From Spirochaetia bacterium (GTDB lineage: Bacteria; Spirochaetota; Spirochaetia; DSM-27196; Salinispiraceae), in contig JBBRCZ010000001.1 in the NCBI GenBank assembly GCA_038204425.1, positions 256,001 to 320,000 on the forward strand: DNA of 64,000 nt. The letters are read 5' to 3'. The number at the start of each line of letters is the position of its first letter. Position 1 is the first letter of the stretch. Made by a program: the position numbers and the translations under genes. The notes below the pieces were generated by a model that made no database searches, was not told the origin of the DNA, and saw only the letters and a program-made list of their open reading frames with translations. This document shows, one piece after another, positions 7,613 through 21,277 of the stretch.

Positions 7613-8110
7613 ATGAAGATTTCGGCAGACGCACAAGCGTCAATCAATAGTCAAATTAAAGAAGAGTTTGAATCGGCGTTTATCTATTTGTCCATGGAAG
7701 CATGGTTTTCGGCGAAAGACCTAGGCGGTTTTGCGTCATGGATGAGAGTACAGTATCGGGAGGAGACCGAGCATGCATTCAAGATGCTTGACTATTTGGT
7801 GCAGCGAGACGGAAGTGCCGAGATTCCAGCTATCGCAAAGGCGCAAGGCGTATGGAAGAGTCCTTTAGAGATTTTTGAAGCCGCGTACAAACATGAGCAG
7901 TACATCACAACAAAGATTTACGCCATTGTCGAAGCAGCGCGCAAAACAGGCGATTTGGCGACCGAGAATTTTTATCGTTGGTTCGTGAGTGAACAAGTAG
8001 AAGAGGAAGCCTCCGCTCTAAGCATTGTGAAACAACTTAAAATCGCCAACGATAATCCAGCTATAATTCTCATGATAGATAGACAATTAGCTGCTCGAGC
8101 AAGAGCTTAG
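7613..8110 (+). CDS. ftnA: Non-heme ferritin
   Basis: EFESAFIYLSM, EETEHA, HEQYIT and FVSEQVEEE ferroxidase motifs; SD AAGGAG before ATG 7613. Confidence 0.93.
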   Translation: MKISADAQASINSQIKEEFESAFIYLSMEAWFSAKDLGGFASWMRVQYREETEHAFKMLDYLVQRDGSAEIPAIAKAQGVWKSPLEIFEAAYKHEQYITTKIYAIVEAARKTGDLATENFYRWFVSEQVEEEASALSIVKQLKIANDNPAIILMIDRQLAARARA

Positions 8111-8194: not shown

Positions 8195-8356
8195 ATGAAG
8201 AAGTACGTATGCCAGGTTTGTGGCTATATTTATGATCCCGCTGAAGGCGATCCAGACAATGGTGTAGCCCCTGGTACAAGCTTTGAAAACATTCCCGAAG
8301 ACTGGGTATGTCCAATGTGTGGAGCTGATAAAACTGACTTTGTTCTCGAAGACTGA
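8195..8356 (+). CDS. Rubredoxin (53 aa)
   Basis: Below the ORF-track cut-off. [53 protein letters not shown] with two CxxCG motifs; SD AAGGAG. Confidence 0.97.
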
Positions 8357-8370
8357 ACAAACTGTTTAAA

Positions 8371-8421
8371 AAAACGAAAGAGCCTGTCCCAGAATAAAAA
8401 TCTGAGACAGGCTCTTTTTTT
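8371..8421. terminator. Bidirectional intrinsic terminator between rubredoxin and aroC
   Basis: Stem AAAGAGCCTGTC...GACAGGCTCTTT with a T-tract on the + side and an A-tract upstream. Confidence 0.85.
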
Positions 8422-10116: not shown

Positions 10117-10566
10117 TTAGTACAAAACCTCTTTTATGTCCTGTGGGTTAATTCTAAAAATGGAACCTCGGCCTTGTAGAAAGTGATATTTTTCAAACAT
10201 ATGCAGGCTCAATTCATTGTAAAGCAAATGCAAACCAGTTCCGATTCTCTCCACTTCACAATTGACTTTGTGGAATATGCCGTCTTCCCAAGGCGACGGC
10301 AAGGTACCCCTAGTTTCATCAACTTTTACCAACCATTTGTTGTCGACAGTTATTGCTACACTCAATCCAGCTTTGCCGGCTTCCAATAGTTGCTTTAAGA
10401 GCAAAAAACTTTGGTCCCAGTCAAGGCCAAGTTTAGTCATAACTTCTTCATCGGCTTCGATGATATCAGTAATAGGCCGCTTGTCGCGCCCGAGAAATCC
10501 TGTTGCGGTGATAACACCAGCTTGCATATTTTCTTGTGCTTTAATACTATCAAAACTCTGTTTCAT
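10117..10566 (-). CDS. Hypothetical soluble protein, last gene of the Nqr-like operon
   Basis: AGGAG SD before ATG 10566, immediately after the nqrF stop; GFLGxD and HMFEKYHFLQGRGS motifs. Confidence 0.75.
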   Translation of the reverse strand: MKQSFDSIKAQENMQAGVITATGFLGRDKRPITDIIEADEEVMTKLGLDWDQSFLLLKQLLEAGKAGLSVAITVDNKWLVKVDETRGTLPSPWEDGIFHKVNCEVERIGTGLHLLYNELSLHMFEKYHFLQGRGSIFRINPQDIKEVLY

Positions 10567-10584
10567 GGTTAACTCCTCATCCAA

Positions 10585-11709
10585 TCAGGCAAATTTATCA
10601 AAGTAGATATTTTCTTCTTTCATGGAATTTTTACGCATTACATTCATGCATGCGTCAAGCATTCCTGGACTTCCACATAAATAACCTTCTTTGTTCTGTT
10701 CAAGTGGCATCTTTTCTTGCAAGTACGTGTTGAGCACTTCGGTGATTAGACCAGTAGCACCTTCCCATTTTTCGTCGGGCTGGGGTTCAGATAGAGCAGG
10801 AACAAAATGAAAGCGTTCATATTTTTTGTCCAAGTCCCAAAGCCAATCTAAGTAAAACATATCTCGTGTGGTTCGGGCTCCAAAGAAGTACCAAATGTCA
10901 CGTTTGCCCATGGAGCCACTTTCAATCATACCATTAAAAATTGACTTAAATGGAGCCATGCCAGAACCGCCTGCAACACAAATCATAGCTGCGTCGTTGT
11001 CTTTGACATGGAATTCACCTACTGGTGCAACTATGTTAATCTTTTGCCCTTCCTTGAGTAAAGTGTGAACATAACTGGTTACGATGCCGCCTGGCACAAG
11101 CCTAATCAAAAACTCAATATGGGTTTTGAGCTGTGGATGACTAGAAAAAGAGTAGGCACGTTGAGTTGATTCTTTTATATCACCATATGCGGGTACTTCA
11201 AACTGACCGTATTGTCCGGCAATATAGTTGAGTTCTAGTCCTTCTGGCAGCTTCAGAAGTACTTGCTTAATGTCGTGGGTAACGGTGCTAATTTTTTCAA
11301 CGTTACAGCTAAACTTTTTTATGTTAAAAAGTTCTTCAGGAATTTTGATGGCTAAGTCGGTTTTAACTTTGACCTGACAAGACAGATGCACGTTATCTGC
11401 TATCTCTTGTGCATTTAAGTAAGGAAGTTCAGTTGGCAAATGTAGACCAACGTCGCTTTGAATCTGGCACTTACAAGCCCCACATGAACCTCGACCGCCG
11501 CAAGCGGAAGGGACGTAAATTCCCTGTTCTGCGAGAGTCCCAAGCAGTTTGCTTCCGCCTTTAACTAAGAGTTGCTTTTTTCCATCGTTTATATCAATGG
11601 TTACTTCACCATAGTTGTTGACGATACTGTCGGTTATGGAAAGCAAGGCACCCAGGATCGCACTTATAAGTGCAACTACCAAAGGCGCCAAAATTATTGC
11701 TATAGACAC
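10585..11709 (-). CDS. nqrF: NqrF-like NADH dehydrogenase subunit (TM anchor, 2Fe-2S, FAD, NAD)
   Basis: N-terminal TM; CGGRGSCGAC...LSCQ; RAYSF FAD motif; GGSGMAP; YLCG; C-terminal DKFA. Confidence 0.88.
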   Translation of the reverse strand: MSIAIILAPLVVALISAILGALLSITDSIVNNYGEVTIDINDGKKQLLVKGGSKLLGTLAEQGIYVPSACGGRGSCGACKCQIQSDVGLHLPTELPYLNAQEIADNVHLSCQVKVKTDLAIKIPEELFNIKKFSCNVEKISTVTHDIKQVLLKLPEGLELNYIAGQYGQFEVPAYGDIKESTQRAYSFSSHPQLKTHIEFLIRLVPGGIVTSYVHTLLKEGQKINIVAPVGEFHVKDNDAAMICVAGGSGMAPFKSIFNGMIESGSMGKRDIWYFFGARTTRDMFYLDWLWDLDKKYERFHFVPALSEPQPDEKWEGATGLITEVLNTYLQEKMPLEQNKEGYLCGSPGMLDACMNVMRKNSMKEENIYFDKFA

Positions 11710-11727
11710 GTGCTGTACCTCACTTTC

Positions 11728-12321
11728 TTACTGTACCTTGAGCATGCCGGAAAAACCAATAAATGCCATGGCCATAAAGCCAATCGTGATGAGTGTTATA
11801 CCTGGACCTTGGAGGCCTGCCGGTACAGGATTTTTGTCCACTTTCTTTCTAATGGCCGAAAGTGCCATAATTGCCATCCACCAGCCTATACCTGAACCTA
11901 ATCCAAACGAAATTGATTGAACAAAGTCATAATTCCTGATCTGCATAAACAGAACCGCGCCCAAAATAGCACAATTAACCGTTATGAGAGGCAAAAATAT
12001 TCCTAGACTCATGTACAGGCTTGGAGAAATTCTTTCAATGACCATCTCAAGAACCTGAACAACTGCGGCAATTACAACAATAAAAACAATAAAGGCAAGG
12101 TATTCGATGCCAAGCGGAACAAGTATGAACTTAAGCACTAGCCAGTTAATGGCCACTGTCAAGACCAAGACAATGGTTACAGCTATTCCTAAGCCATTGG
12201 AACTCTTGAAATCTTTTGAAATTGATATGAATGAACACATTCCCAAAAAATTTGCCAAAAGTATATTGGATGTAAAAATAGACGCAAACAAAAGTGTAAT
12301 CGGATCAACAACTGGACTCAT
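11728..12321 (-). CDS. nqrE: NqrE/RnfA-family membrane subunit
   Basis: FLGMCSF and LPLITVNCAILG; GGAGG SD and ATGA overlap at 12321. Confidence 0.88.
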   Translation of the reverse strand: MSPVVDPITLLFASIFTSNILLANFLGMCSFISISKDFKSSNGLGIAVTIVLVLTVAINWLVLKFILVPLGIEYLAFIVFIVVIAAVVQVLEMVIERISPSLYMSLGIFLPLITVNCAILGAVLFMQIRNYDFVQSISFGLGSGIGWWMAIMALSAIRKKVDKNPVPAGLQGPGITLITIGFMAMAFIGFSGMLKVQ

Positions 12322-12950
12322 TTTTTGCCTCCTTGTGTGCTGTCTTTGAGCATCTTGGTTTTTGAAATCCAAAGAAGGATTCCAACTAAGAAAAACGCTG
12401 AAGGAGCCATAACCATAATTGTCCAGTTGTTACCACCGGCAGCAAACTCAAGGGGGAGAATTTGGACACCAAATAAAGTCCCAAAACCTAAGAACTCACG
12501 TACTACGGCAATTAGCATCAAGACCGCCATGTATCCCAAACCACTAGTCAATCCATCCCAGAAACTTAATAGTGGGGGATTGGCTTGGGCATAGGCTTCG
12601 GCACGACCCATGATAATACAGTTGGTTATAATTAGGCCTACATAAGGGCCAAGGTTCTTAGAAACTTCTGGGGCATAGGCTCGTAAAAGAATATCTACGA
12701 TAATTACGTAAAACGCTATTACCATAGTTTGCACTATCATTCTAACCTTGCGCGGAATCAAGTTGTTGATAGCTGATAGGGTAAAACTTGAAAAAGCGGT
12801 AACCAAGGCCACCCCAATGGTCATTATTAGTGTATTTGACAGTAAATTGGTTACTGCCAGCGTGGAACAGATCCCTAAGATTTGTATCAAAATGGGGTTG
12901 TTTGTCCAAACATTGTCTTTTAGTACGGCAATTATTTTATTTTCGCTCAT
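12318..12950 (-). CDS. nqrD: NqrD/RnfE-family membrane subunit
   Basis: NNPILIQILGICSTLAV, VGLIITNCIIMGRAE, REFLG. Confidence 0.88.
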   Translation of the reverse strand: MSENKIIAVLKDNVWTNNPILIQILGICSTLAVTNLLSNTLIMTIGVALVTAFSSFTLSAINNLIPRKVRMIVQTMVIAFYVIIVDILLRAYAPEVSKNLGPYVGLIITNCIIMGRAEAYAQANPPLLSFWDGLTSGLGYMAVLMLIAVVREFLGFGTLFGVQILPLEFAAGGNNWTIMVMAPSAFFLVGILLWISKTKMLKDSTQGGKK

Positions 12951-13636
12951 TGTACCGCTCCTGAAAGTATGCTCTTGAGGTCGGCAATTGACTTGTTAAC
13001 GAGGTCGCGAACACCGTTAGTAGTCAGGGTAGCTCCGGTGACTCCATCAACAACGTCGTCATTATAGTTCTGGTCGCCAGTACCATCTCCGGCCTTGTAT
13101 CTCAGGATTCCGCTTGCTGGGATAGCTTGGCCATTAAACTGATTATAGAACCATGGTTCACCAATCCGAGCGCCAAGGCCCGGTGTCTCAACTTGAGCCA
13201 GAACTTGCAAACCCTTAAATTGGCTTACTTCACTATTTACCCCGATCGCAAGTGTGATGTTTCCCCAGAGAGCGGGACCTATAAAGGTGCCAGCCCAACG
13301 TGTTTCTTGATTAACAACCGTTCTATAATAGATTTGAAATATCGGGGAGCCACTTTTTCGAGCCTGTTCCAATTGTTGATTGCTTACTTGGGTTAGTTTC
13401 TTGTTTCCATCCAGCGTGAACTTATCTAGGTCTGCAAATAGCTTGAGGATATTGTCTGTATCACTCACCGAATAGCTGATACCCAATGCTGTTAAAATGC
13501 CGTTTGCATCGCTGAGCTTGCGATTCTGCTCGACAATTGGCTTGGTTGCTTCATTGGCAAGTGCCAAAGGAAAAACTAGTACAAAAGTTGCAATAAACGA
13601 AAATATGACCGTGTAGATCAAACTGTTTTTGTTCAT
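12947..13636 (-). CDS. nqrC: NqrC/RnfG-family FMN-binding subunit
   Basis: N-terminal TM; LWG, ETPGLG and VDGVTGATLT (FMNylated Thr motif). Confidence 0.85.
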   Translation of the reverse strand: MNKNSLIYTVIFSFIATFVLVFPLALANEATKPIVEQNRKLSDANGILTALGISYSVSDTDNILKLFADLDKFTLDGNKKLTQVSNQQLEQARKSGSPIFQIYYRTVVNQETRWAGTFIGPALWGNITLAIGVNSEVSQFKGLQVLAQVETPGLGARIGEPWFYNQFNGQAIPASGILRYKAGDGTGDQNYNDDVVDGVTGATLTTNGVRDLVNKSIADLKSILSGAVQ

Positions 13637-14838
13637 GCTTTTACCTCAGCCTTAGGCGCGGCCTTTTTCTTTGCGGGTAGCAGCTCATCCAATAACGCGG
13701 CAAAGGTATTTGCAGTCAGGATGCCAAAGCTTACCCCCTCTGGAAAAGCTGAGAAACAACGAACCACAATAGTTACACCGCCGATTAAAAAACCGTAAAA
13801 CCATTGTGAAAGTGGCTTTTTAGGTGCTGTTACCGGGTCGGTTGCCATAAATACTGCAACAAAAAACAAACTACCCGCCATCATGAAGGCTGCAATGTCA
13901 CTAAGTTGGGCCAGTATGTCTTTTCCACTTGGATCGAGTAGGGGCAACTTGGCCTTCATGAGGCCAGTGTAGTAAAAGATTACAGTCAATATTAGCGCTG
14001 ACAACAAAGTTGAAACTATCATCTTCCAGTTGGCGACTCTGTTCCAGACCAAATAGATGCCAGCCAGTATTATTAAGAAAATAGGACCCTCGCCAATGCT
14101 CCCCACTCTAAGTCCAAAAAACATATTTACAAGATTGTTTTCCTTTAGGTAAGCAAGTGACGCTGGTGGATTCCAATCCGCTCCCAGTCCCCTAAACAGT
14201 TCTAGCGGTGTTGCAGTTGCAATGGCGTCGACTTCTAACTGTCCATTGCCTCGCCATCCGGTATAGGCGCTAACAATGTAAAAGGCGATTACCAAAGCTG
14301 TAGCACCAAGCGAAGTTACAATAACTCTTTTTTTGTCTTCTGGTTTCGCTTTTATTATTAGAAAAGCAACGATTGAGATTATCAAGAAGAATACTGCTTC
14401 GGTCCAAACACTTGGCAAGACTTGGACGTTAATTCCCAATGTTCCTGCAAAGCCTGGGAACATCCAGGTTGTCTGCATCAACAAAGGAAAACTGATGTAG
14501 GTAAACATCCGGCCTGCGATAGCTGGATTAAAAATATTCCGTCCAAATCCGCCGTAAGCTTCTTTTCCAATCAAAATAGCAAAAACGATGCCGACAGCTG
14601 CTACCCACAAAGGTACTGCAGGCGGCAAGGAAAGTGAGAACAGAGCTGCAGTAACCCAAACGGCTTCTGAAACCTTTTTGTTTCGCGATTTTTCCACGAC
14701 CATCTCGGTAAGAATACCCAATAAGAATACTACCGCTGTCACCACAACGCTGCGCCATCCGTAAAGCCAGATAGACCACAGAAAGATGGGTGCCAAAGAG
14801 TAGACGACTTTGCGCATCGGATCCTGTTTAATGAACAC
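13633..14838 (-). CDS. nqrB: NqrB/RnfD-family membrane subunit
   Basis: KEAYGGFGRNIFNPA, DAIATATPL (FMN-Thr), GSIGE, FMATDPVTAP, PEGVSF; GGAGG SD before GTG. Confidence 0.85.
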   Translation of the reverse strand: MFIKQDPMRKVVYSLAPIFLWSIWLYGWRSVVVTAVVFLLGILTEMVVEKSRNKKVSEAVWVTAALFSLSLPPAVPLWVAAVGIVFAILIGKEAYGGFGRNIFNPAIAGRMFTYISFPLLMQTTWMFPGFAGTLGINVQVLPSVWTEAVFFLIISIVAFLIIKAKPEDKKRVIVTSLGATALVIAFYIVSAYTGWRGNGQLEVDAIATATPLELFRGLGADWNPPASLAYLKENNLVNMFFGLRVGSIGEGPIFLIILAGIYLVWNRVANWKMIVSTLLSALILTVIFYYTGLMKAKLPLLDPSGKDILAQLSDIAAFMMAGSLFFVAVFMATDPVTAPKKPLSQWFYGFLIGGVTIVVRCFSAFPEGVSFGILTANTFAALLDELLPAKKKAAPKAEVKA

Positions 14839-15041
14839 GGTGCCTCCTTGTTCTCAAATAACTACAAATTTTCGTAAAAACATACCCTTTTATTCTACCT
14901 TTTATCGACCTGCTTAGGTAGTGTTTTTTGCACAAAACCGTTTGCACCAAAACACGACTGGGTTAGTCATAAATAGACAAGATCAAGATATGTAATCATG
15001 CTTATTTTATCAATATGAAAAGTGTGATTGGAAGCAAGGAT

Positions 15042-15070
15042 TTGTAAAAATAGTTTAATATAGCTATAGT
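15042..15070 (+). promoter_or_regulatory. Sigma70-type promoter of the lipoate ligase-PDH operon
   Basis: TTGTAA-N17-TATAGT. Confidence 0.55.
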
Positions 15071-15147
15071 GATGCCGGCAAATCGTTGCCTTTTATGACT
15101 GATTGTGTCATATTTTACCGGCTTTACTGGAACTAAGGAGTACCTGC

Positions 15148-16053
15148 TTGCCTTTTGAATCGTTTGTCTACCTCATGACATCCAGCAATACTTGCAGCAA
15201 TCTGTCTTGGGAAGAATGGCTTTTTGACCATTTGCAAGCAGATCAGCGTGCGTTTTTGGTATATGAAAATATGCCATCTTTAGTAATCGGCAAGAATCAG
15301 AATGCGTGGGTAGAAGGCGATCACACTTTTCTGAGTCAACAGAATGTAGGGGTGGTGCGCAGAGTCTCTGGCGGAGGTACGGTAGTTCATGGTAAAGGGA
15401 ATGTGAACTACTCTTTTGTGGTTCCGCGTCAAAGCTTCAGCCAGACCCAAAATCTTAGCTTGTTGCAAAGATTTTTTGGATCTTTGGGACTTATGACAAC
15501 TCAGTCAGAGCGAGGCGATCTTTTGTTTGAAGATAGAAAGTTTTCGGGAAACGCAATGGCATATCGTCAAAGGAGTGTTTTGCACCATGGGACACTATTG
15601 TTCGATCTCGAACAGGAATTTTTGTTCCGTTGTCTCAAGCGCCCTATCGCGTCTGGATGGCTTAGAAAAAATAGTTCAGTTAAATCAAACCCTATGCCTA
15701 CCGTCAATTTGGGTCGCCATTTGAAGTTCGCCAGTCAAGTTGATTTTGCTCGAGATTTGGCGCACTGGATAGCTTCGCAATGGGGAGTGGGTGTAAAAGA
15801 GATAGACAGCAGTTTGCAGCCCACAAAAACTGTGGCTTATGCAGAAAAATATAGCAATTGGCAGTGGAATTTTGGGCATTCGCCTAATTTTAGTTTTGCG
15901 GATCCTGAACCAGAGTCGCATAGGACTATAATTGAAGTAGAAAATGGCATGATGGTACGGAGAATCAATTCGGACGGCAGCCGTTTGGATTTTGATCCTT
16001 TACCCTTTGTTGGTTTTGACGATGAAGACGCCTTACGTAGATTGGTAAACTAG
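15148..16053 (+). CDS. lplA: Lipoate-protein ligase A
   Basis: IGKNQN, RRVSGGGTVVH, KFSGNA, HHGTLLF, WNFGHSP; TAAGGAG SD before TTG 15148. Confidence 0.9.
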   Translation: MPFESFVYLMTSSNTCSNLSWEEWLFDHLQADQRAFLVYENMPSLVIGKNQNAWVEGDHTFLSQQNVGVVRRVSGGGTVVHGKGNVNYSFVVPRQSFSQTQNLSLLQRFFGSLGLMTTQSERGDLLFEDRKFSGNAMAYRQRSVLHHGTLLFDLEQEFLFRCLKRPIASGWLRKNSSVKSNPMPTVNLGRHLKFASQVDFARDLAHWIASQWGVGVKEIDSSLQPTKTVAYAEKYSNWQWNFGHSPNFSFADPEPESHRTIIEVENGMMVRRINSDGSRLDFDPLPFVGFDDEDALRRLVN

Positions 16054-16072
16054 TAGAACTTGGAGGAAAGTT

Positions 16073-16513
16073 ATGGAAGTACGCGCAATGTTAGGAATTT
16101 TGGACAGGCTGTTGGATGATGCAAAGATTGCAGTTTTGGCTAACTCGGCTGAGGATGGAAGTCCCTCGGTTAGATGGATGAGTCCGGCTCTTGTTAGAGG
16201 ACGAGAAGGTTACCTATATGCGGTTACTTCGAGTAAGTTTACTAAAACCAATCAACTAGAAAAGTCCCCCAAGGTGATGTGGATGGTCCAAACCAAGGCT
16301 TTGGATGAAATTATGAGCATCAAGGGAAATATGCATGTTTTACGCAATCCTTCTTTGCAACAAGAGGTCATTGAAGCAATTGGTAGCAAGCTGGGTACCT
16401 TCTGGAAGCTCAATAAAGACACGGATGACGTAGTGGTGCTAGAAACGGTAATTGAAGAACTGGAATACTTTGCTCCTGCAAAAAATGAAAAGTCCAGCGT
16501 ACGAATTAAATAA
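16073..16513 (+). CDS. Pyridoxamine-5'-phosphate oxidase-like FMN-binding split-barrel protein
   Basis: VLAN..DGSPSVRWM...LYAVT...KTNQL..SPKV pattern; GGAGG SD. Confidence 0.7.
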   Translation: MEVRAMLGILDRLLDDAKIAVLANSAEDGSPSVRWMSPALVRGREGYLYAVTSSKFTKTNQLEKSPKVMWMVQTKALDEIMSIKGNMHVLRNPSLQQEVIEAIGSKLGTFWKLNKDTDDVVVLETVIEELEYFAPAKNEKSSVRIK

Positions 16514-16524
16514 GGAGCTTCTTA

Positions 16525-17547
16525 ATGTCGGACAAAAAATTGGGTGTAAAAAAATTGGCCATTAAGGACTACGACCCCAAGTTCCTTGAAAAGCTGCTCT
16601 ATGACATGCTGTTGATTAGGCGTTTTGAAGAAAAAGCCGGTGCGATGTATGGCCTTCGCAAAATTGGTGGGTTTTGCCACTTATACAATGGGCAAGAAGC
16701 TGTTGCTATAGGCAGTATTGGTGCCTTGGATCTTAGTAGAGATTACGTTCTCACAGGGTATCGAGACCACGGTCATGCACTGGCTTGTGGCATGCATCCC
16801 AACCAAATTATGGCCGAACTCTACGGAAAAGTGACCGGCTCGTCAAAGGGGAAAGGCGGCAGTATGCACATTTTTGATGCCGAAAAGCATATGATGGGCG
16901 GTAACGGTATTGTTGGCGCACAGATACCGATTGCAACCGGAATAGCCTTTGCCAGCGCCTATGACTTTAAACTAGGAAAAACAAAAGATATGGGTGTCAC
17001 ACTTTGTTATTTTGGTGACGGAGCGATCCATCAAGGGGCCTTTCATGAAAGCCTAAACTTGGCTAGAATTTGGAATTTGCCGGCGGTTTATATTGTTGAG
17101 AATAATCACTTTGGCATGGGAACTGCCGTTAGCCGTGTCTCGGCCGTCAGCGACTTTGACGTAAAAGCAAAGGGCTACAACATGCCAGGCATTACCGTAA
17201 ACGGCATGGACGTCCTAGAAGTATATGAGACACTAAAGTCGATTGTAAAAGAAGTGAGAGAAAACGGTATTCCTTGGTTGGTTGACATTAAGACCTATCG
17301 ATACAAAGGCCACTCGATGTCTGACCCTGCCAAGTATCGAAGCAAGGACGAAGTCGACAGTTTTAAGAACCAAGATCCAATTGTGCAACTAAAGCAGAAG
17401 ATGTTAGAAGCAGGCGTGCTTTCGGAAAGTGGATACCAAAAAATGGATGATGGTATCAAAGAACTGGTTCAAGCTTCGGTTACCTTTGCCGAAGAAAGCC
17501 CTGAACCGGCATTGGAAAGTATCTATCAGGACGCCTACGCGGAATAA
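16525..17547 (+). CDS. pdhA: Pyruvate dehydrogenase E1 alpha
   Basis: GGFCHLYNGQEA, GKGGSMH, GDGA...ENN TPP motif, YKGHSMSDP. Confidence 0.96.
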   Translation: MSDKKLGVKKLAIKDYDPKFLEKLLYDMLLIRRFEEKAGAMYGLRKIGGFCHLYNGQEAVAIGSIGALDLSRDYVLTGYRDHGHALACGMHPNQIMAELYGKVTGSSKGKGGSMHIFDAEKHMMGGNGIVGAQIPIATGIAFASAYDFKLGKTKDMGVTLCYFGDGAIHQGAFHESLNLARIWNLPAVYIVENNHFGMGTAVSRVSAVSDFDVKAKGYNMPGITVNGMDVLEVYETLKSIVKEVRENGIPWLVDIKTYRYKGHSMSDPAKYRSKDEVDSFKNQDPIVQLKQKMLEAGVLSESGYQKMDDGIKELVQASVTFAEESPEPALESIYQDAYAE

Positions 17548-17561
17548 CGGGAGAAATAATA

Positions 17562-18539
17562 ATGGCATTAATTACTTATCGTGAGGCCCTCAATCAGGCC
17601 ATGGATGAAGAAATGGCGCGGGATGACCGGGTCTATTTGATGGGCGAAGAAGTTGCCGAATATAACGGCGCTTACAAGGTTTCTAAAGGTCTTTTGGATA
17701 AATATGGTCCTATTAGGGTCATTGATACGCCAATTGCCGAGCTCGGCTTTACCGGCTTGGGGGTTGGTTCCGCAATCGTTGGTTTGCGACCAATTATCGA
17801 ATGGATGACCATGAACTTTGGAATTCTTGCACTTGATCAAATCGTAAACAACGCGGCCAAGTTAAGGCACATGTCAGGTGGACAACTTAAATGCCCGATG
17901 GTAGTCAGAGGACCCAACGGTCCAGCCGAATATTTATCAAGTCAACACAGCCAGGCCCTGGCAAGCTACTTTGCACACATACCCGGCCTAAAAGTTGTCT
18001 CTCCAATTACGCCTTATGACGCCAAGGGTTTGCTCAAGAGTGCAATCCGGGATGACAATCCAGTCATCGTGCTAGAAGCTGAAATGGTCTATGGCCATAC
18101 AGGCGAGGTTCCAGACGAAGAGTATCTGGTTCCTATCGGCAAGGCCGACGTAAAGAGAAGCGGAAGCGACGTAAGCTTTATTGCCTACGGCAAGCCGGTT
18201 TTACTCGCATTGCAGGCAGCCGCAGAACTCGAAAAGCAAGGAATTAGTGCGGAGGTTGTCGACCTTCGTTCAGTTAGACCAATTGATGAAGCAGCAATCT
18301 ACGAAAGTGTTCGTAAGACCAATCGAGCAGTAGTAATAGACGAAAGCTGGCCGATCGCATCGATAGGAAGTCATGTCTCTCATTTAATAGCGACTAATTG
18401 TTTTGATGACCTTGATGCTCCGGTTGAGTATGTTTCTTGTGAGGATGTACCCATGCCTTATAATCATGCACTTGAACTTGCAGTGCAGCCAAGCGTTGAA
18501 AAAATTGTAAAAGCGGCAAAGAAGGTTCTTTACCTTTAA
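17562..18539 (+). CDS. pdhB: Pyruvate dehydrogenase E1 beta
   Basis: MGEEVAEYNGAYK, DTPIAE, QHSQ. Confidence 0.96.
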   Translation: MALITYREALNQAMDEEMARDDRVYLMGEEVAEYNGAYKVSKGLLDKYGPIRVIDTPIAELGFTGLGVGSAIVGLRPIIEWMTMNFGILALDQIVNNAAKLRHMSGGQLKCPMVVRGPNGPAEYLSSQHSQALASYFAHIPGLKVVSPITPYDAKGLLKSAIRDDNPVIVLEAEMVYGHTGEVPDEEYLVPIGKADVKRSGSDVSFIAYGKPVLLALQAAAELEKQGISAEVVDLRSVRPIDEAAIYESVRKTNRAVVIDESWPIASIGSHVSHLIATNCFDDLDAPVEYVSCEDVPMPYNHALELAVQPSVEKIVKAAKKVLYL

Positions 18540-18593
18540 GAGATTGAGAGTATGTTTGTTCACTCAAGAAATAGAGCAAACTAGGAGACCAGC

Positions 18594-19835
18594 ATGGCAG
18601 AAAAAATTCAAATGATCGCGCTTTCTCCCACCATGGAAGAAGGCACAATAGTAAAATGGAACCTCAAAGTCGGCGACAGTGTTAAAACCGGCGATGTTTT
18701 GTGCGAAGTAGAAACAGACAAAGCCACTATGGAGTACGAGTCTTCCCAAGAGGGTACTATACTCAAAATAGTTCTTGACCAAGGAAGCACAGCAAAAGTT
18801 GGCGACATGATTGGCATAATTGGTGCCAAGGGTGAGGATATTTCTGCAATTGCCTCTAGTCCAGCTGAGGCAAGCCCAGCAGCAAGTAGTGATGCCAAGT
18901 CAGCTTCCAAAGCGAATGAAACGCCAGCTTCGACAGTCCAAGCAAGTAATCAAGACTCCAACCATGCAAGTGGTTCTACCAAGGCAAGTCCCTTGGCGCG
19001 AAAACTTGCCGCCGATCGCGGCATAGATTTAACTAACGTTTCGGGGACTGGTCCTGACGGTCGTGTAATCAAACGAGACTTAGAAGGTCAGGCAAGTGGC
19101 AAACCAGCTGGCCAAAGCCCATCGGCCTCAACAGTTGTCAGTTCCGGACAGGATCAAAAAATACAAGTTACTGGCAAGCGCGCAGTTATTGCCAAGCGTT
19201 TGGCTGAGTCCCTTTTTACAGCTCCACATTTCTTCTTGACATCAAGTGTTGCAATGGATAATTTAATTGCCACCCGCAATTTATTAAACAAACAAGTTGA
19301 TCCCAAGTCCAAGGTAGGCTTTAATGCCTTTATTATCAAACTTGCCGCCGAAGCCTTAAAGCGTCACGCTGCGGTCAACGCTTCTTGGCAAGGTGATCAT
19401 ATCTTGCAGTTTGGCAGCATTGATATTGGTCTTGCAGTGGACCTAGGTAACGGCCTCATCACGCCGATTGTGCGTAACGCAGCCAACAAGGGTGTTTACC
19501 AAATTGATCAAGAACTAAAGGTGCTTATAGAAAAAGCAGGAGCCGGCACTCTCAAACCCGATGAATATTCTGGCGCAACATTTACAATATCTAACCTCGG
19601 CAGTTTTGGAGTAGAAGAGTTTACTGCCATAATTAACCCGCCAGGCAGCGCAATTCTTGCCCTTGGCGAAGTCAAGAAAACGCCAGTTGTGGGTGAAAAT
19701 GATCAAATTGTCGTCGCAAGCATAATGAAAATGACCGTTTCATGCGATCATCGCGTTATTGATGGTGCACTTGGTGGTCGGTTTATCGCGGAACTTAAAG
19801 CACTGCTGGAACAGCCAGCACGAGCAATTTTTTGA
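18594..19835 (+). CDS. pdhC: Dihydrolipoamide acetyltransferase E2
   Basis: One lipoyl domain (ETDKAT), ASPLARKLA binding domain, DHRVIDG catalytic motif. Confidence 0.96.
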
Positions 19836-19876
19836 TCCGACTTTGATTTTTACGACGCACGAGGAGAGATACAGAT

Positions 19877-21277
19877 ATGGCAGAATTTGACTACGATTTG
19901 GCAATTATTGGAGCAGGGCCTGGTGGCTATGTAAGCGCGATTAGAGCAAGTCAGCTGGGGCTAAAAACCGTTGTAATAGAAAAAGACAAACCGGGCGGCG
20001 TATGTGGCAACTGGGGCTGTATACCTTCCAAATCATTGTTGAGTATGGCAGAAACCTTTCATTCTATTAAGTCGTTAGAAGCCATGGGTGTCAAAGTTGA
20101 CAAAACGAGCTTTGACTACCAAAAAGTACATGCCCGTTCCCGCGCCGCCAGCGACCGATCCGGCAAAGGTGTCGCCGGACTTCTCAAACGAAACAAAATT
20201 GAACTATTAAGTGCCACAGCGACCCTTACCAGCCCACACGAACTGCAGCTCACGACTGCTGAAGGCAAGCGAACAGTTACAAGTAAGAACATTCTAATTG
20301 CAAGTGGCAGCAGCCCGCGTGTAATTCCTGGCTTTGAGTTTGACGAACAACAAGTGCTTTCATCAACGGGAATTCTGGCGATGGACAAGCTTCCAGAAAG
20401 TCTGGTTATCCTTGGTGCTGGCGCCATAGGTATGGAACTTGCCTATATAATGAACGCTTTCGGCGTTAAGGTAAGTGTAGTTGAAATGCTCGACAGAGTG
20501 TTGCCGCTTGAAGACGCCGACATCAGTAAAGTCGTTGAGTCAGAATTGAAGAAGCAAGGAATTACTTTTTTAACCTCAACAAAAGCTTCTGATCTAAAGA
20601 AGTCTAAAGCAGGCATCAGCTTGCAGATAGAAACTAAGTCAGGCCAAAAAAGTAAACTAGAGGCAGAAAAGATTCTGGTAGCGGTCGGACGCAGTCCCAA
20701 CAGTGCCAATTTGGGACTTGAAAAACTCGGCATTGCAATCGAAAAAGGCTTTGTCGTCACTGGAGACTACTACCAAACCTCAGTAAAGAGTGTCTTTGCC
20801 ATTGGAGATCTTATAGCTAGCCCCTTACTGGCTCATGTGGCTAGCAAAGAGGGTGAGATTGCAGTTGAGTATATTGCCGGACATGGACACGAAAAACGAT
20901 TAGATCCAAGTCTTATTCCCGGCGCAGTTTATACCGAACCTGGGGTGGGTAGCTTTGGATTGACTGAAGCAAAAGCGCTTGAGCAAAAACTTGATATAAG
21001 TGTTTACAGCTTTCCCTACCAAGGGATAGGCAAGGCAAATGCGATCGAAAAAGCAGTAGGACTGGTAAAGATTGTTTGCGATAAGAAAACACACGAGATT
21101 TTAGGCGGGCATGTAGTAGGTTACAGCGCCACCGAAATGATTCATGAAATCTTGCTGGCACGAAAAGCCGAGCTTCTACCTGAAGACATTGCGAGCATGG
21201 TTCATGCCCATCCCACCATATCTGAAGGTATAATGGAAGCTATGCGCGGCATCGAAGGTTGGGCGATTCACGTTTAG
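19877..21277 (+). CDS. lpdA: Dihydrolipoamide dehydrogenase E3
   Basis: GAGPGG, GGVCGNWGCIPSK, HAHPTISE. Confidence 0.96.
   Translation: MAEFDYDLAIIGAGPGGYVSAIRASQLGLKTVVIEKDKPGGVCGNWGCIPSKSLLSMAETFHSIKSLEAMGVKVDKTSFDYQKVHARSRAASDRSGKGVAGLLKRNKIELLSATATLTSPHELQLTTAEGKRTVTSKNILIASGSSPRVIPGFEFDEQQVLSSTGILAMDKLPESLVILGAGAIGMELAYIMNAFGVKVSVVEMLDRVLPLEDADISKVVESELKKQGITFLTSTKASDLKKSKAGISLQIETKSGQKSKLEAEKILVAVGRSPNSANLGLEKLGIAIEKGFVVTGDYYQTSVKSVFAIGDLIASPLLAHVASKEGEIAVEYIAGHGHEKRLDPSLIPGAVYTEPGVGSFGLTEAKALEQKLDISVYSFPYQGIGKANAIEKAVGLVKIVCDKKTHEILGGHVVGYSATEMIHEILLARKAELLPEDIASMVHAHPTISEGIMEAMRGIEGWAIHV

Follow-up and report, generated by a model that had tools for sequence, protein, structure and literature searches.

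An Nqr-type operon without an A subunit in a spirochaete, and rubredoxin as its possible electron acceptor

The window analyzed here is a stretch of 64,000 nucleotides from contig JBBRCZ010000001.1 of a Spirochaetia bacterium of the Salinispiraceae (genome 2.84 Mb, 95.6% complete), and it carries on its minus strand a six-gene operon (10117..14838) of the Rnf/Nqr family of ion pumps that has no A subunit and ends in a gene, X, without family label. As judged from sequence comparisons, the operon could well encode a six-subunit Nqr-type ion-pumping NADH:rubredoxin oxidoreductase (B-C-D-E-F-X) feeding the removal of O2 and peroxide, a reading that is put forward tentatively. A broader view, advanced with somewhat more reserve, is that such operons form a third Rnf/Nqr branch in which a subunit of novel fold replaces NqrA or RnfC. 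The result would be a quinone-free, ion-pumping respiratory module from NADH to rubredoxin, the missing NADH:rubredoxin oxidoreductase of aerotolerant spirochaetes, that has repeatedly collapsed to a soluble two-protein reductase. If this is correct, anaerobes regarded as "fermentative" in several phyla gain energy from their O2 and peroxide defense by flavodiiron protein (FDP) and rubrerythrin. Neither quinones nor cytochromes would then be needed to make O2 detoxification in anaerobes chemiosmotic, and electrons would have a third type of exit from the Rnf/Nqr core. Since 2014, genome papers describing Nqr clusters without A have named no acceptor; rubredoxin can now be named as a candidate, and this candidate, an overlooked sixth subunit and naturally soluble F+X pairs make the acceptor question testable with soluble proteins. 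The system is found widely: among the genomes searched, 65 of 121 from Thermotogota and 29 of 201 from Spirochaetota carry X.

The operon and its position in the Rnf/Nqr family

The six open reading frames (ORFs) are closely packed, with 4-nt overlaps at B/C, C/D and D/E and a ribosome site of the GGAG/GAGG type in front of every gene, and five of the proteins matched NqrB/RnfD, NqrC, NqrD, NqrE and NqrF in family scans. The B subunit (NqrB/RnfD type, 401 amino acids (aa), 13633..14838) contains ATATPL at residue 207, and the C subunit (NqrC/RnfG type, 229 aa, 12947..13636), with a periplasmic FMN-binding domain, contains TGAT at 200, these being the covalent FMN sites. Two membrane cysteines each are found in D (NqrD, 210 aa, 12318..12950, exceeding the NF006777 cut-off; LGICS and TNCII) and in E (NqrE type, 197 aa, 11728..12321, start ATG 12321; LGMCS and VNCAI). 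F (374 aa, 10585..11709) is a compact NqrF-type input subunit with an N-terminal transmembrane (TM) anchor and 2Fe-2S, FAD and NAD domains of FNR type (PF00111, PF00970, PF00175), marked by CGGRGSCGAC, LSCQ, RAYS, GGSGMAP and YLCGSP; its score of 283.5 bits lies slightly below the TIGR01941 cut-off of 295, and all input parts of the NqrF type (TM anchor and 2Fe-2S, FAD and NADH sites) are present. By their motifs, the covalent FMN sites of B and C, the riboflavin ligands of B and the Cys pairs of D and E are likewise all present. X (10117..10563) has 148 aa counted from its ATG, although the ORF finder opens the frame at TTG 10584; it matched nothing in NCBIfam or Pfam scans of the window proteins, and no TM segment was predicted. 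A sequence-only reading made earlier had described coupled nqrB-C-D-E-F-like genes followed by a soluble gene of about 150 aa, with intact flavin, cysteine and 2Fe-2S/FAD/NAD motifs and about 300 bp of non-coding DNA upstream, and the ORFs, overlaps, scans and motif positions agree with it on each point. An in-frame stop lies 6 codons ahead of the B start and no frame is open for more than 42 codons in 14839-15130, so nothing A-like precedes B.

The same reading had stated that NqrA, RnfC and RnfB are absent, and this holds for the operon but only partly for the genome. In the 95.6% complete genome NqrA gave no PF05896 match and only a weak TIGR01936 match that falls on an RnfC of contig C2, so that the orphan nqrA that could have overturned the reading was not found; nor was any rnfC- or rnfB-like match found in 80 related loci of the Genome Taxonomy Database (GTDB). 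The genome does, however, contain a complete rnf operon on contig C17, separate from the A-less operon, and a second rnfC in a degenerate rnfC-rnfD-rnfE-rnfA cluster on contig C2 (L015:7795-11472) without rnfG or rnfB. The E- and A-like proteins of the C2 cluster had no NCBIfam match at 1e-10. Genome searches that the reading had suggested for apbE, rnf and quinone genes yielded ApbE, this complete rnf and a MenA-like gene, and no MenG. It is conceivable that RnfC is borrowed from C2 or C17 to give a transhydrogenase-like (NADH/NAD(P)+) or Rnf-like module, given the two host RnfC genes, one in a cluster without rnfG and rnfB, and RnfC in 40 of 41 related genomes. This is nevertheless highly improbable, as each RnfC adjoins its own RnfD, A-less B proteins start later than RnfD and have no RnfD N-terminal segment, and NADH to NAD+ has no driving force.

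The relation to Rnf and Nqr was evaluated in a quick tree of B+D+E (41 rows subsampled from 72, rooted on four Rnf) that carries only Shimodaira-Hasegawa-like approximate likelihood ratio test (SH-aLRT) support. The A-less operons form one clade (29 rows, support 98), and they lie on the Nqr side of an Rnf/Nqr split that has a long branch and support of 100. Canonical Nqr is a clade of its own (5 references, support 100) that excludes the A-less operons; a third Nqr-side group (L260-L262, support 100), in which the A subunit is NqrA-like and keeps two 4Fe-4S clusters, joins canonical Nqr at 92, and the A-less clade is sister to both. The Pseudothermotoga and Fervidobacterium loci belong to the same clade as the window operon, which is orthologous to the Thermotogota A-less clusters as judged by the congeneric loci L090 and L101. 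The sequence-only reading had taken the operon for an intermediate between Rnf and Nqr, which the tree did not support: the A-less clade is a sister lineage on the Nqr side, and an early Nqr lineage that lost or replaced A would fit better. The L260-L262 operon is a stronger candidate for an Rnf-to-Nqr intermediate. These loci (L260, G093:C4; L261, G131:C9; L262, G124:C26) hold a second Nqr-type operon with a compact F and a B that has the quinone helices and G141; two RnfC-like 4Fe-4S clusters were shown in the A subunit of L260 and L261, and menA and menG adjoin L260.

The electron exit and the case for rubredoxin

Comparison of B proteins showed that the known quinone exit of Nqr, whose loss had been claimed from the sequence, is indeed missing, there being no NqrA, no AH-I/AH-II and no G141. 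Window B keeps FMN-Thr210 and the riboflavin ligands N101/N104/D334, together with E45, E250 and D384, but aligns only from about NqrB residue 50 and thus has no N-terminal quinone helices AH-I/AH-II, and it has Ile at the G141 position. The short start, likened earlier to that of RnfD, is real, and A-less B proteins start even later than RnfD. An exit-site alignment covered 105 B proteins from A-less operons. None of them departs from the riboflavin ligands N200 and N203, every one has D or E at position 346, and the residue that carries FMN is Thr in 102, with Ser in the other 3; with these flavin sites conserved, the return path to the cytoplasm appears to be kept. Another residue takes the place of G141 in each of the 105, and gaps are found at AH-II position 26 in 102 of them and at position 29 in 99. 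It has been reported that any G141 change blocks quinone, that AH-I/AH-II close on the quinone and that AH-II residues hold it (Hau 2023, PMC10643135, in the text available). Window B also has a lineage-specific insert with two hydrophobic segments at about residues 140-190; its 401 aa compare with about 300-330 in most relatives, and B proteins of similar length occur in L047, L049, L050 and L051.

What surrounds these operons points to rubredoxin. Recurrent neighbors in metagenomes are rubredoxin, FDP, desulfoferrodoxin, rubrerythrins, ferritin, PerR-like Fur, Tpx and glucose-6-phosphate dehydrogenase (G6PDH). At least one of rubredoxin, FDP, superoxide reductase (SOR) and rubrerythrin was found in 24 of 82 metagenome loci, where the host genome's own gene density gives an expected mean of 1.1 and a maximum of 9 in 2000 draws, and near 22 of 66 spirochaete GTDB loci. 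Such stress genes are spread over several distinct subclades of the F tree and often lie within the operon, as in rbr-sor-rd-fdp-BCDEFX (L172), fdp-sor-ftn-rbr-like-BCDEFX-rd-g6pd (L215; the same cassette with F+X only in L206), rbr-like-sor-rbr-BCDEFX (three genomes) and BCDEFX-rd (three others); the same stress operon exists with B-E in L155 and L215 and without B-E in L178 and L206. In 10 of the 76 metagenome loci that extend far enough, the gene immediately after X on its strand encodes rubredoxin; the same order, at a distance of 40-352 nt, is found in 10 of the 29 X-positive Spirochaetota genomes, all of which contain a rubredoxin. In L199 a natural X-rubredoxin fusion closes a full operon, FDP-B-C-D-E-F-X~rubredoxin. 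Among close relatives, 22 of 36 genomes have rubredoxin no more than 10 kb from X, and 0 of 67 rnfC loci have it at that distance from rnfC, a linkage that represents one lineage and one inherited arrangement. The host genome encodes FDP, rubrerythrin, two rubredoxins, ferritin and Tpx, of which FDP, rubrerythrin and Tpx are encoded away from the window operon. An apparent shortage of soluble NADH:rubredoxin reductase in X-positive genomes (PF18267 in Thermotogota, 5 of 65 X-positive versus 26 of 56 X-negative) was not counted, because 4 of 8 matches inspected lie in glutamate-synthase clusters and related genomes are not independent.

Several observations weigh against rubredoxin reduction at B. 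All of the evidence is guilt by association, the neighborhood background was drawn from one genome, and the hidden Markov models (HMMs) were built from the same loci. Rubredoxin is common in any case, with matches in 132 of 201 Spirochaetota at E<=1e-15, while rubredoxin, FDP, SOR and rubrerythrin were near 0 of 13 Thermotogota GTDB loci, 7 of 13 Spirochaetota regions show no such stress genes, and no stress gene is annotated at the Ilyobacter locus. The growth yield of Salinispira pacifica was reported not to be raised by O2 (PMC4511686, available text). As F+X survive in places without B-E (see below), the site of rubredoxin reduction may be F and not B. Finally, an exit to a naphthoquinone may exist, because G141 is likewise missing from the menaquinone-using NqrB of Bacteroidota (L267 and L268 have Leu there) and 37 of 41 genomes of the group have a UbiA-family gene, the one in the host being MenA-like.

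Reduction of (demethyl)menaquinone at an altered B site, as in Bacteroidota Nqr and with X as a structural substitute for NqrA, would account for these last two facts and for SdhA/B in the host genome, yet it is improbable. The AH-I/AH-II helices are retained by Bacteroidota NqrB and missing from A-less B; cytochrome bd, SdhC and MenG were not found in the host genome by profile search, which leaves no evident sink for quinol; S. pacifica was described as having no respiratory quinones (PMC4511686, in the text available); and the cluster that does have menA/menG as neighbors (L260) belongs to the sister clade that keeps A, the AH helices and G141. The single MenA-like prenyltransferase gene of the host is at C1:443574-444491 (L137:7574-8491), in a genome without a MenG match, and such genes are common in the group. 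The sdhA-sdhB genes are followed by sucC-sucD at C18:33577-36124, and a membrane anchor gene was not found (0 PF01127 matches).

The sixth subunit and soluble F-X pairs

X belongs to the system, as had been proposed before its co-occurrence was surveyed, and by that survey it is a partner of F. Matches were obtained in 36 of 41 genomes of relatives, and in all 30 of the loci listed from them F stands immediately upstream of X. The same holds for 78 of the best 80 of 195 GTDB loci, the remaining two running into contig ends; all 59 GTDB loci with enough room hold B-F. An unranked set of metagenome loci, collected by means of an X motif, has F ahead of X in 61 of the 62 that extend far enough, and 33 of the 39 with 5.5 kb upstream contain B-F. 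An orthologous F occurs in 30 Spirochaetota genomes, namely the 29 with X and G170, whose operon has no X, and among the Thermotogota X and F are each present in 65 genomes, of which 64 are shared.

X is a soluble conserved family (1035 representatives at E<=0.001) with a confident predicted model (pLDDT 94). Fold searches gave no Foldseek/PDB match at E<=0.001 and a best VIA-align Z of 2.8 among 48,161 chains, an absence that does not by itself show the fold as new. The nearest family label is DUF7919 (PF25535), which is distant: Atlas feature matches of 0.92-0.95 were to clusters with 13% and 95% DUF7919, whereas window X has no DUF7919 Pfam match and 1 of 118 homologues has a weak one, below cut-off. 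The common Cys of X is replaced by Ser in 50 of 122 copies. X had been suggested as a soluble electron partner, but it is unlikely to be the acceptor itself since no cofactor motif was recognized and X follows F, not B; the comparative evidence points to rubredoxin instead. Of the X copies linked to the membrane arm, 112 of 122 have retained an N-terminal motif, MK, as against 1 of 10 soluble copies, which suggests that this segment contacts the membrane arm. A predicted F-X complex scored 0.55 against 0.00 for the best control, which the tool rates as weak support, with agreement in at least 89% of contacts between runs and partner pLDDT of at least 86; the mark for this score is reached by 116 of 157 solved pairs and 2 of 215 mismatched pairs, and at <=0.60 by only 18 of the 157 solved pairs and both mismatched ones. 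Among 11 longer X homologues scanned, 5 carry a rubredoxin (2), rubrerythrin, nitroreductase or redoxin domain, although these are mostly single records and some are possibly read-through. A search of 8000 candidates with broad alignment found no fused or longer X, which is weak evidence given the fusions found by the other search. One protein of 885 aa (P0061) has three X-family domain copies and no Pfam match, and some family members are encoded without an accompanying F (L201); the domain therefore also serves elsewhere than in this complex.

These data also bear on the idea that X helps F to mature or keeps it stable, with flavodoxin, a desulforedoxin-type protein, free flavin or a lineage-dependent carrier as acceptor. 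X does remain with F after B-E are lost, canonical Nqr requires a small maturation protein, NqrM (PMC12174285, in the text available), and the Thermotogota loci without stress neighbors would suit another carrier. It is nonetheless rather unlikely, inasmuch as close F relatives do without X (G170, L260-L262), the distribution of the MK motif suggests membrane-arm contact, and the fusion partners of X are redox proteins.

Loss of the membrane arm is seen at L157, L168, L171, L178, L198, L206 and L280-L283, where an F of about 338 aa without TM anchor is followed by X and B-E are absent. The flanking genes of L280 and L281 match those of full operons L289 and L151, and therefore B-E were cut out. 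In a quick F tree the F+X-only forms need 5 origins by parsimony, and at least 4 are forced by starred branches. Ratios of nonsynonymous to synonymous substitution (dN/dS) of 0.11-0.26 in three F pairs and 0.09-0.17 in five X pairs, the 8 measurable pairs (the L178/L206 pairs and the membrane control pair were saturated), indicate that F+X is under purifying selection after B-E loss. Some remnants decay, as the L288 copy is frameshifted. L148, where a TM-anchored F is followed by X, rubredoxin and G6PDH and the 2.5 kb upstream contain no B-E, is a possible early stage of membrane-arm loss. An F motif for NADH versus NADPH showed no clean correspondence with G6PDH neighbors.

The repeated origins under low dN/dS mean that F-X has a job without B-E, and, with the predicted F-X complex, they favor a scheme in which rubredoxin is reduced at a membrane-tethered F-X without ion coupling, while B-E serve a second partner or run in reverse on the ion gradient. 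This scheme is unlikely, although less so than the others considered, given that 33 of 39 metagenome loci and 59 of 59 genome loci of sufficient length retain B-E, among them operons otherwise devoted purely to O2 defense, and that no second partner gene recurs near the operon in the neighborhood clusters.

For the ion-pumping NADH:rubredoxin oxidoreductase, we infer the following path from the observed genes, motifs, co-occurrence, clade, neighborhoods and fusions. F would oxidize NADH through FAD and then 2Fe-2S; electrons would cross the membrane by the D/E cluster to the FMN of C and, as the conserved cofactor sites suggest, return through the FMN of B to its riboflavin, the route known from Nqr and Rnf, while ions would be translocated in the manner of Nqr. 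With neither NqrA/RnfC nor quinone helices, the cytoplasmic face of B would be open, and rubredoxin, a carrier of single electrons, could take the electron there. X would bind F, probably touch the membrane arm with its N-terminal segment and position rubredoxin, and after B-E loss the anchor-less F with X would be an uncoupled soluble reductase. Nqr riboflavin is a one-electron carrier, and rubredoxins, near 0 to -60 mV, offer a span from NADH similar to that of menaquinone. Reduced rubredoxin would then pass electrons to FDP, rubrerythrin and SOR, which rubredoxin feeds in anaerobes generally as the standard sinks for O2, H2O2 and superoxide.

Genomic setting and comparison with known systems

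In the window itself, a rubredoxin of 53 aa (8195..8356, plus strand), the proposed electron acceptor, lies 1.8 kb from X across aroK-aroC, with a non-heme ferritin gene (7613..8110, plus strand) directly upstream of it; a 17-pair hairpin (8377..8417) between the converging aroC and rubredoxin genes is a likely terminator. On the other side, a divergent non-coding region of 34% GC (14839..15102) separates the operon from a plus-strand cluster (15103..21277) of lplA, a PNPOx-like gene and pyruvate dehydrogenase (PDH) E1a/E1b/E2/E3, identified from ORFs and family scans. PDH is a possible NADH source, as context outside the complex. A PDH cluster with lplA beside the operon was judged unusual for fermentative anaerobes, and lplA adjoins the operon in 10 of 80 GTDB loci. 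A promoter scan of the region gave 17 sites against 15.0 expected by chance.

The A-less layout is already known and has been in print since 2014, in keeping with the mention in the sequence-only reading of similar operons in other anaerobes without a defined acceptor. In the portions of these papers available, NqrBCDEF without nqrA was described in T. thermarum and T. lettingae, with the other reactant called unknown (Goeker 2014, PMC4148951), and the same layout is seen in C. ultunense (CUESP_0375-0379), where a rubrerythrin, CUESP_0386, lies near the cluster and no link is drawn in that text (Manzoor 2018, PMC5924567). In S. pacifica, an Nqr-like cluster of five genes (L21SP2_2184-2188) lies close to PDH (2176-2179) and rubredoxin (2197), a layout that matches the window by locus tags; the organism is described there as having no quinone, terminal-oxidase or NADH:rubredoxin oxidoreductase genes, yet O2 is actively reduced (Ben Hania 2015, PMC4511686). 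Other sources served as background only (PMC4014512, PMC8238504, PMC13492135, in part). New to the literature searched are the sixth subunit, the soluble F+X and the acceptor hypothesis; no paper naming the sixth gene or tying A-less Nqr to rubredoxin was found in a search that took in few subscription papers and did not cover supplements.

In summary, the window operon shares with the published A-less clusters (Pseudothermotoga thermarum and lettingae, C. ultunense, S. pacifica) the order B-C-D-E-F, the lack of nqrA, a separate Rnf and an undefined acceptor, but in the available text those are described as five genes, with the sixth gene, soluble F+X and a rubredoxin link unmentioned. With the Na+-NQR of Vibrio cholerae (NqrABCDEF; PDB 7XK3, 8A1U) it has in common the B-E core, FMN sites, riboflavin ligands, D/E cysteines and NqrF-type input, and it differs in having no NqrA, AH-I/AH-II or G141, a shorter F, the extra X and a place in the sister clade. 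The Rnf complex (RnfABCDEG; PDB 7ZC6, 8AHX, 9ERI) similarly has a short B without quinone helices, and its riboflavin subunit meets a soluble acceptor on the cytoplasmic side; in the window operon, however, RnfB and RnfC are absent, NADH would enter through F, and a long branch with support of 100 separates the two. The soluble NAD(P)H:rubredoxin oxidoreductases of Clostridium, Desulfovibrio and Thermotoga, which are flavoproteins of the pyridine nucleotide-disulfide type, have the same job as that proposed here and the same partner genes in operons, whereas F is an FNR-type/2Fe-2S protein on a membrane ion-pump core and not of the pyridine nucleotide-disulfide fold.

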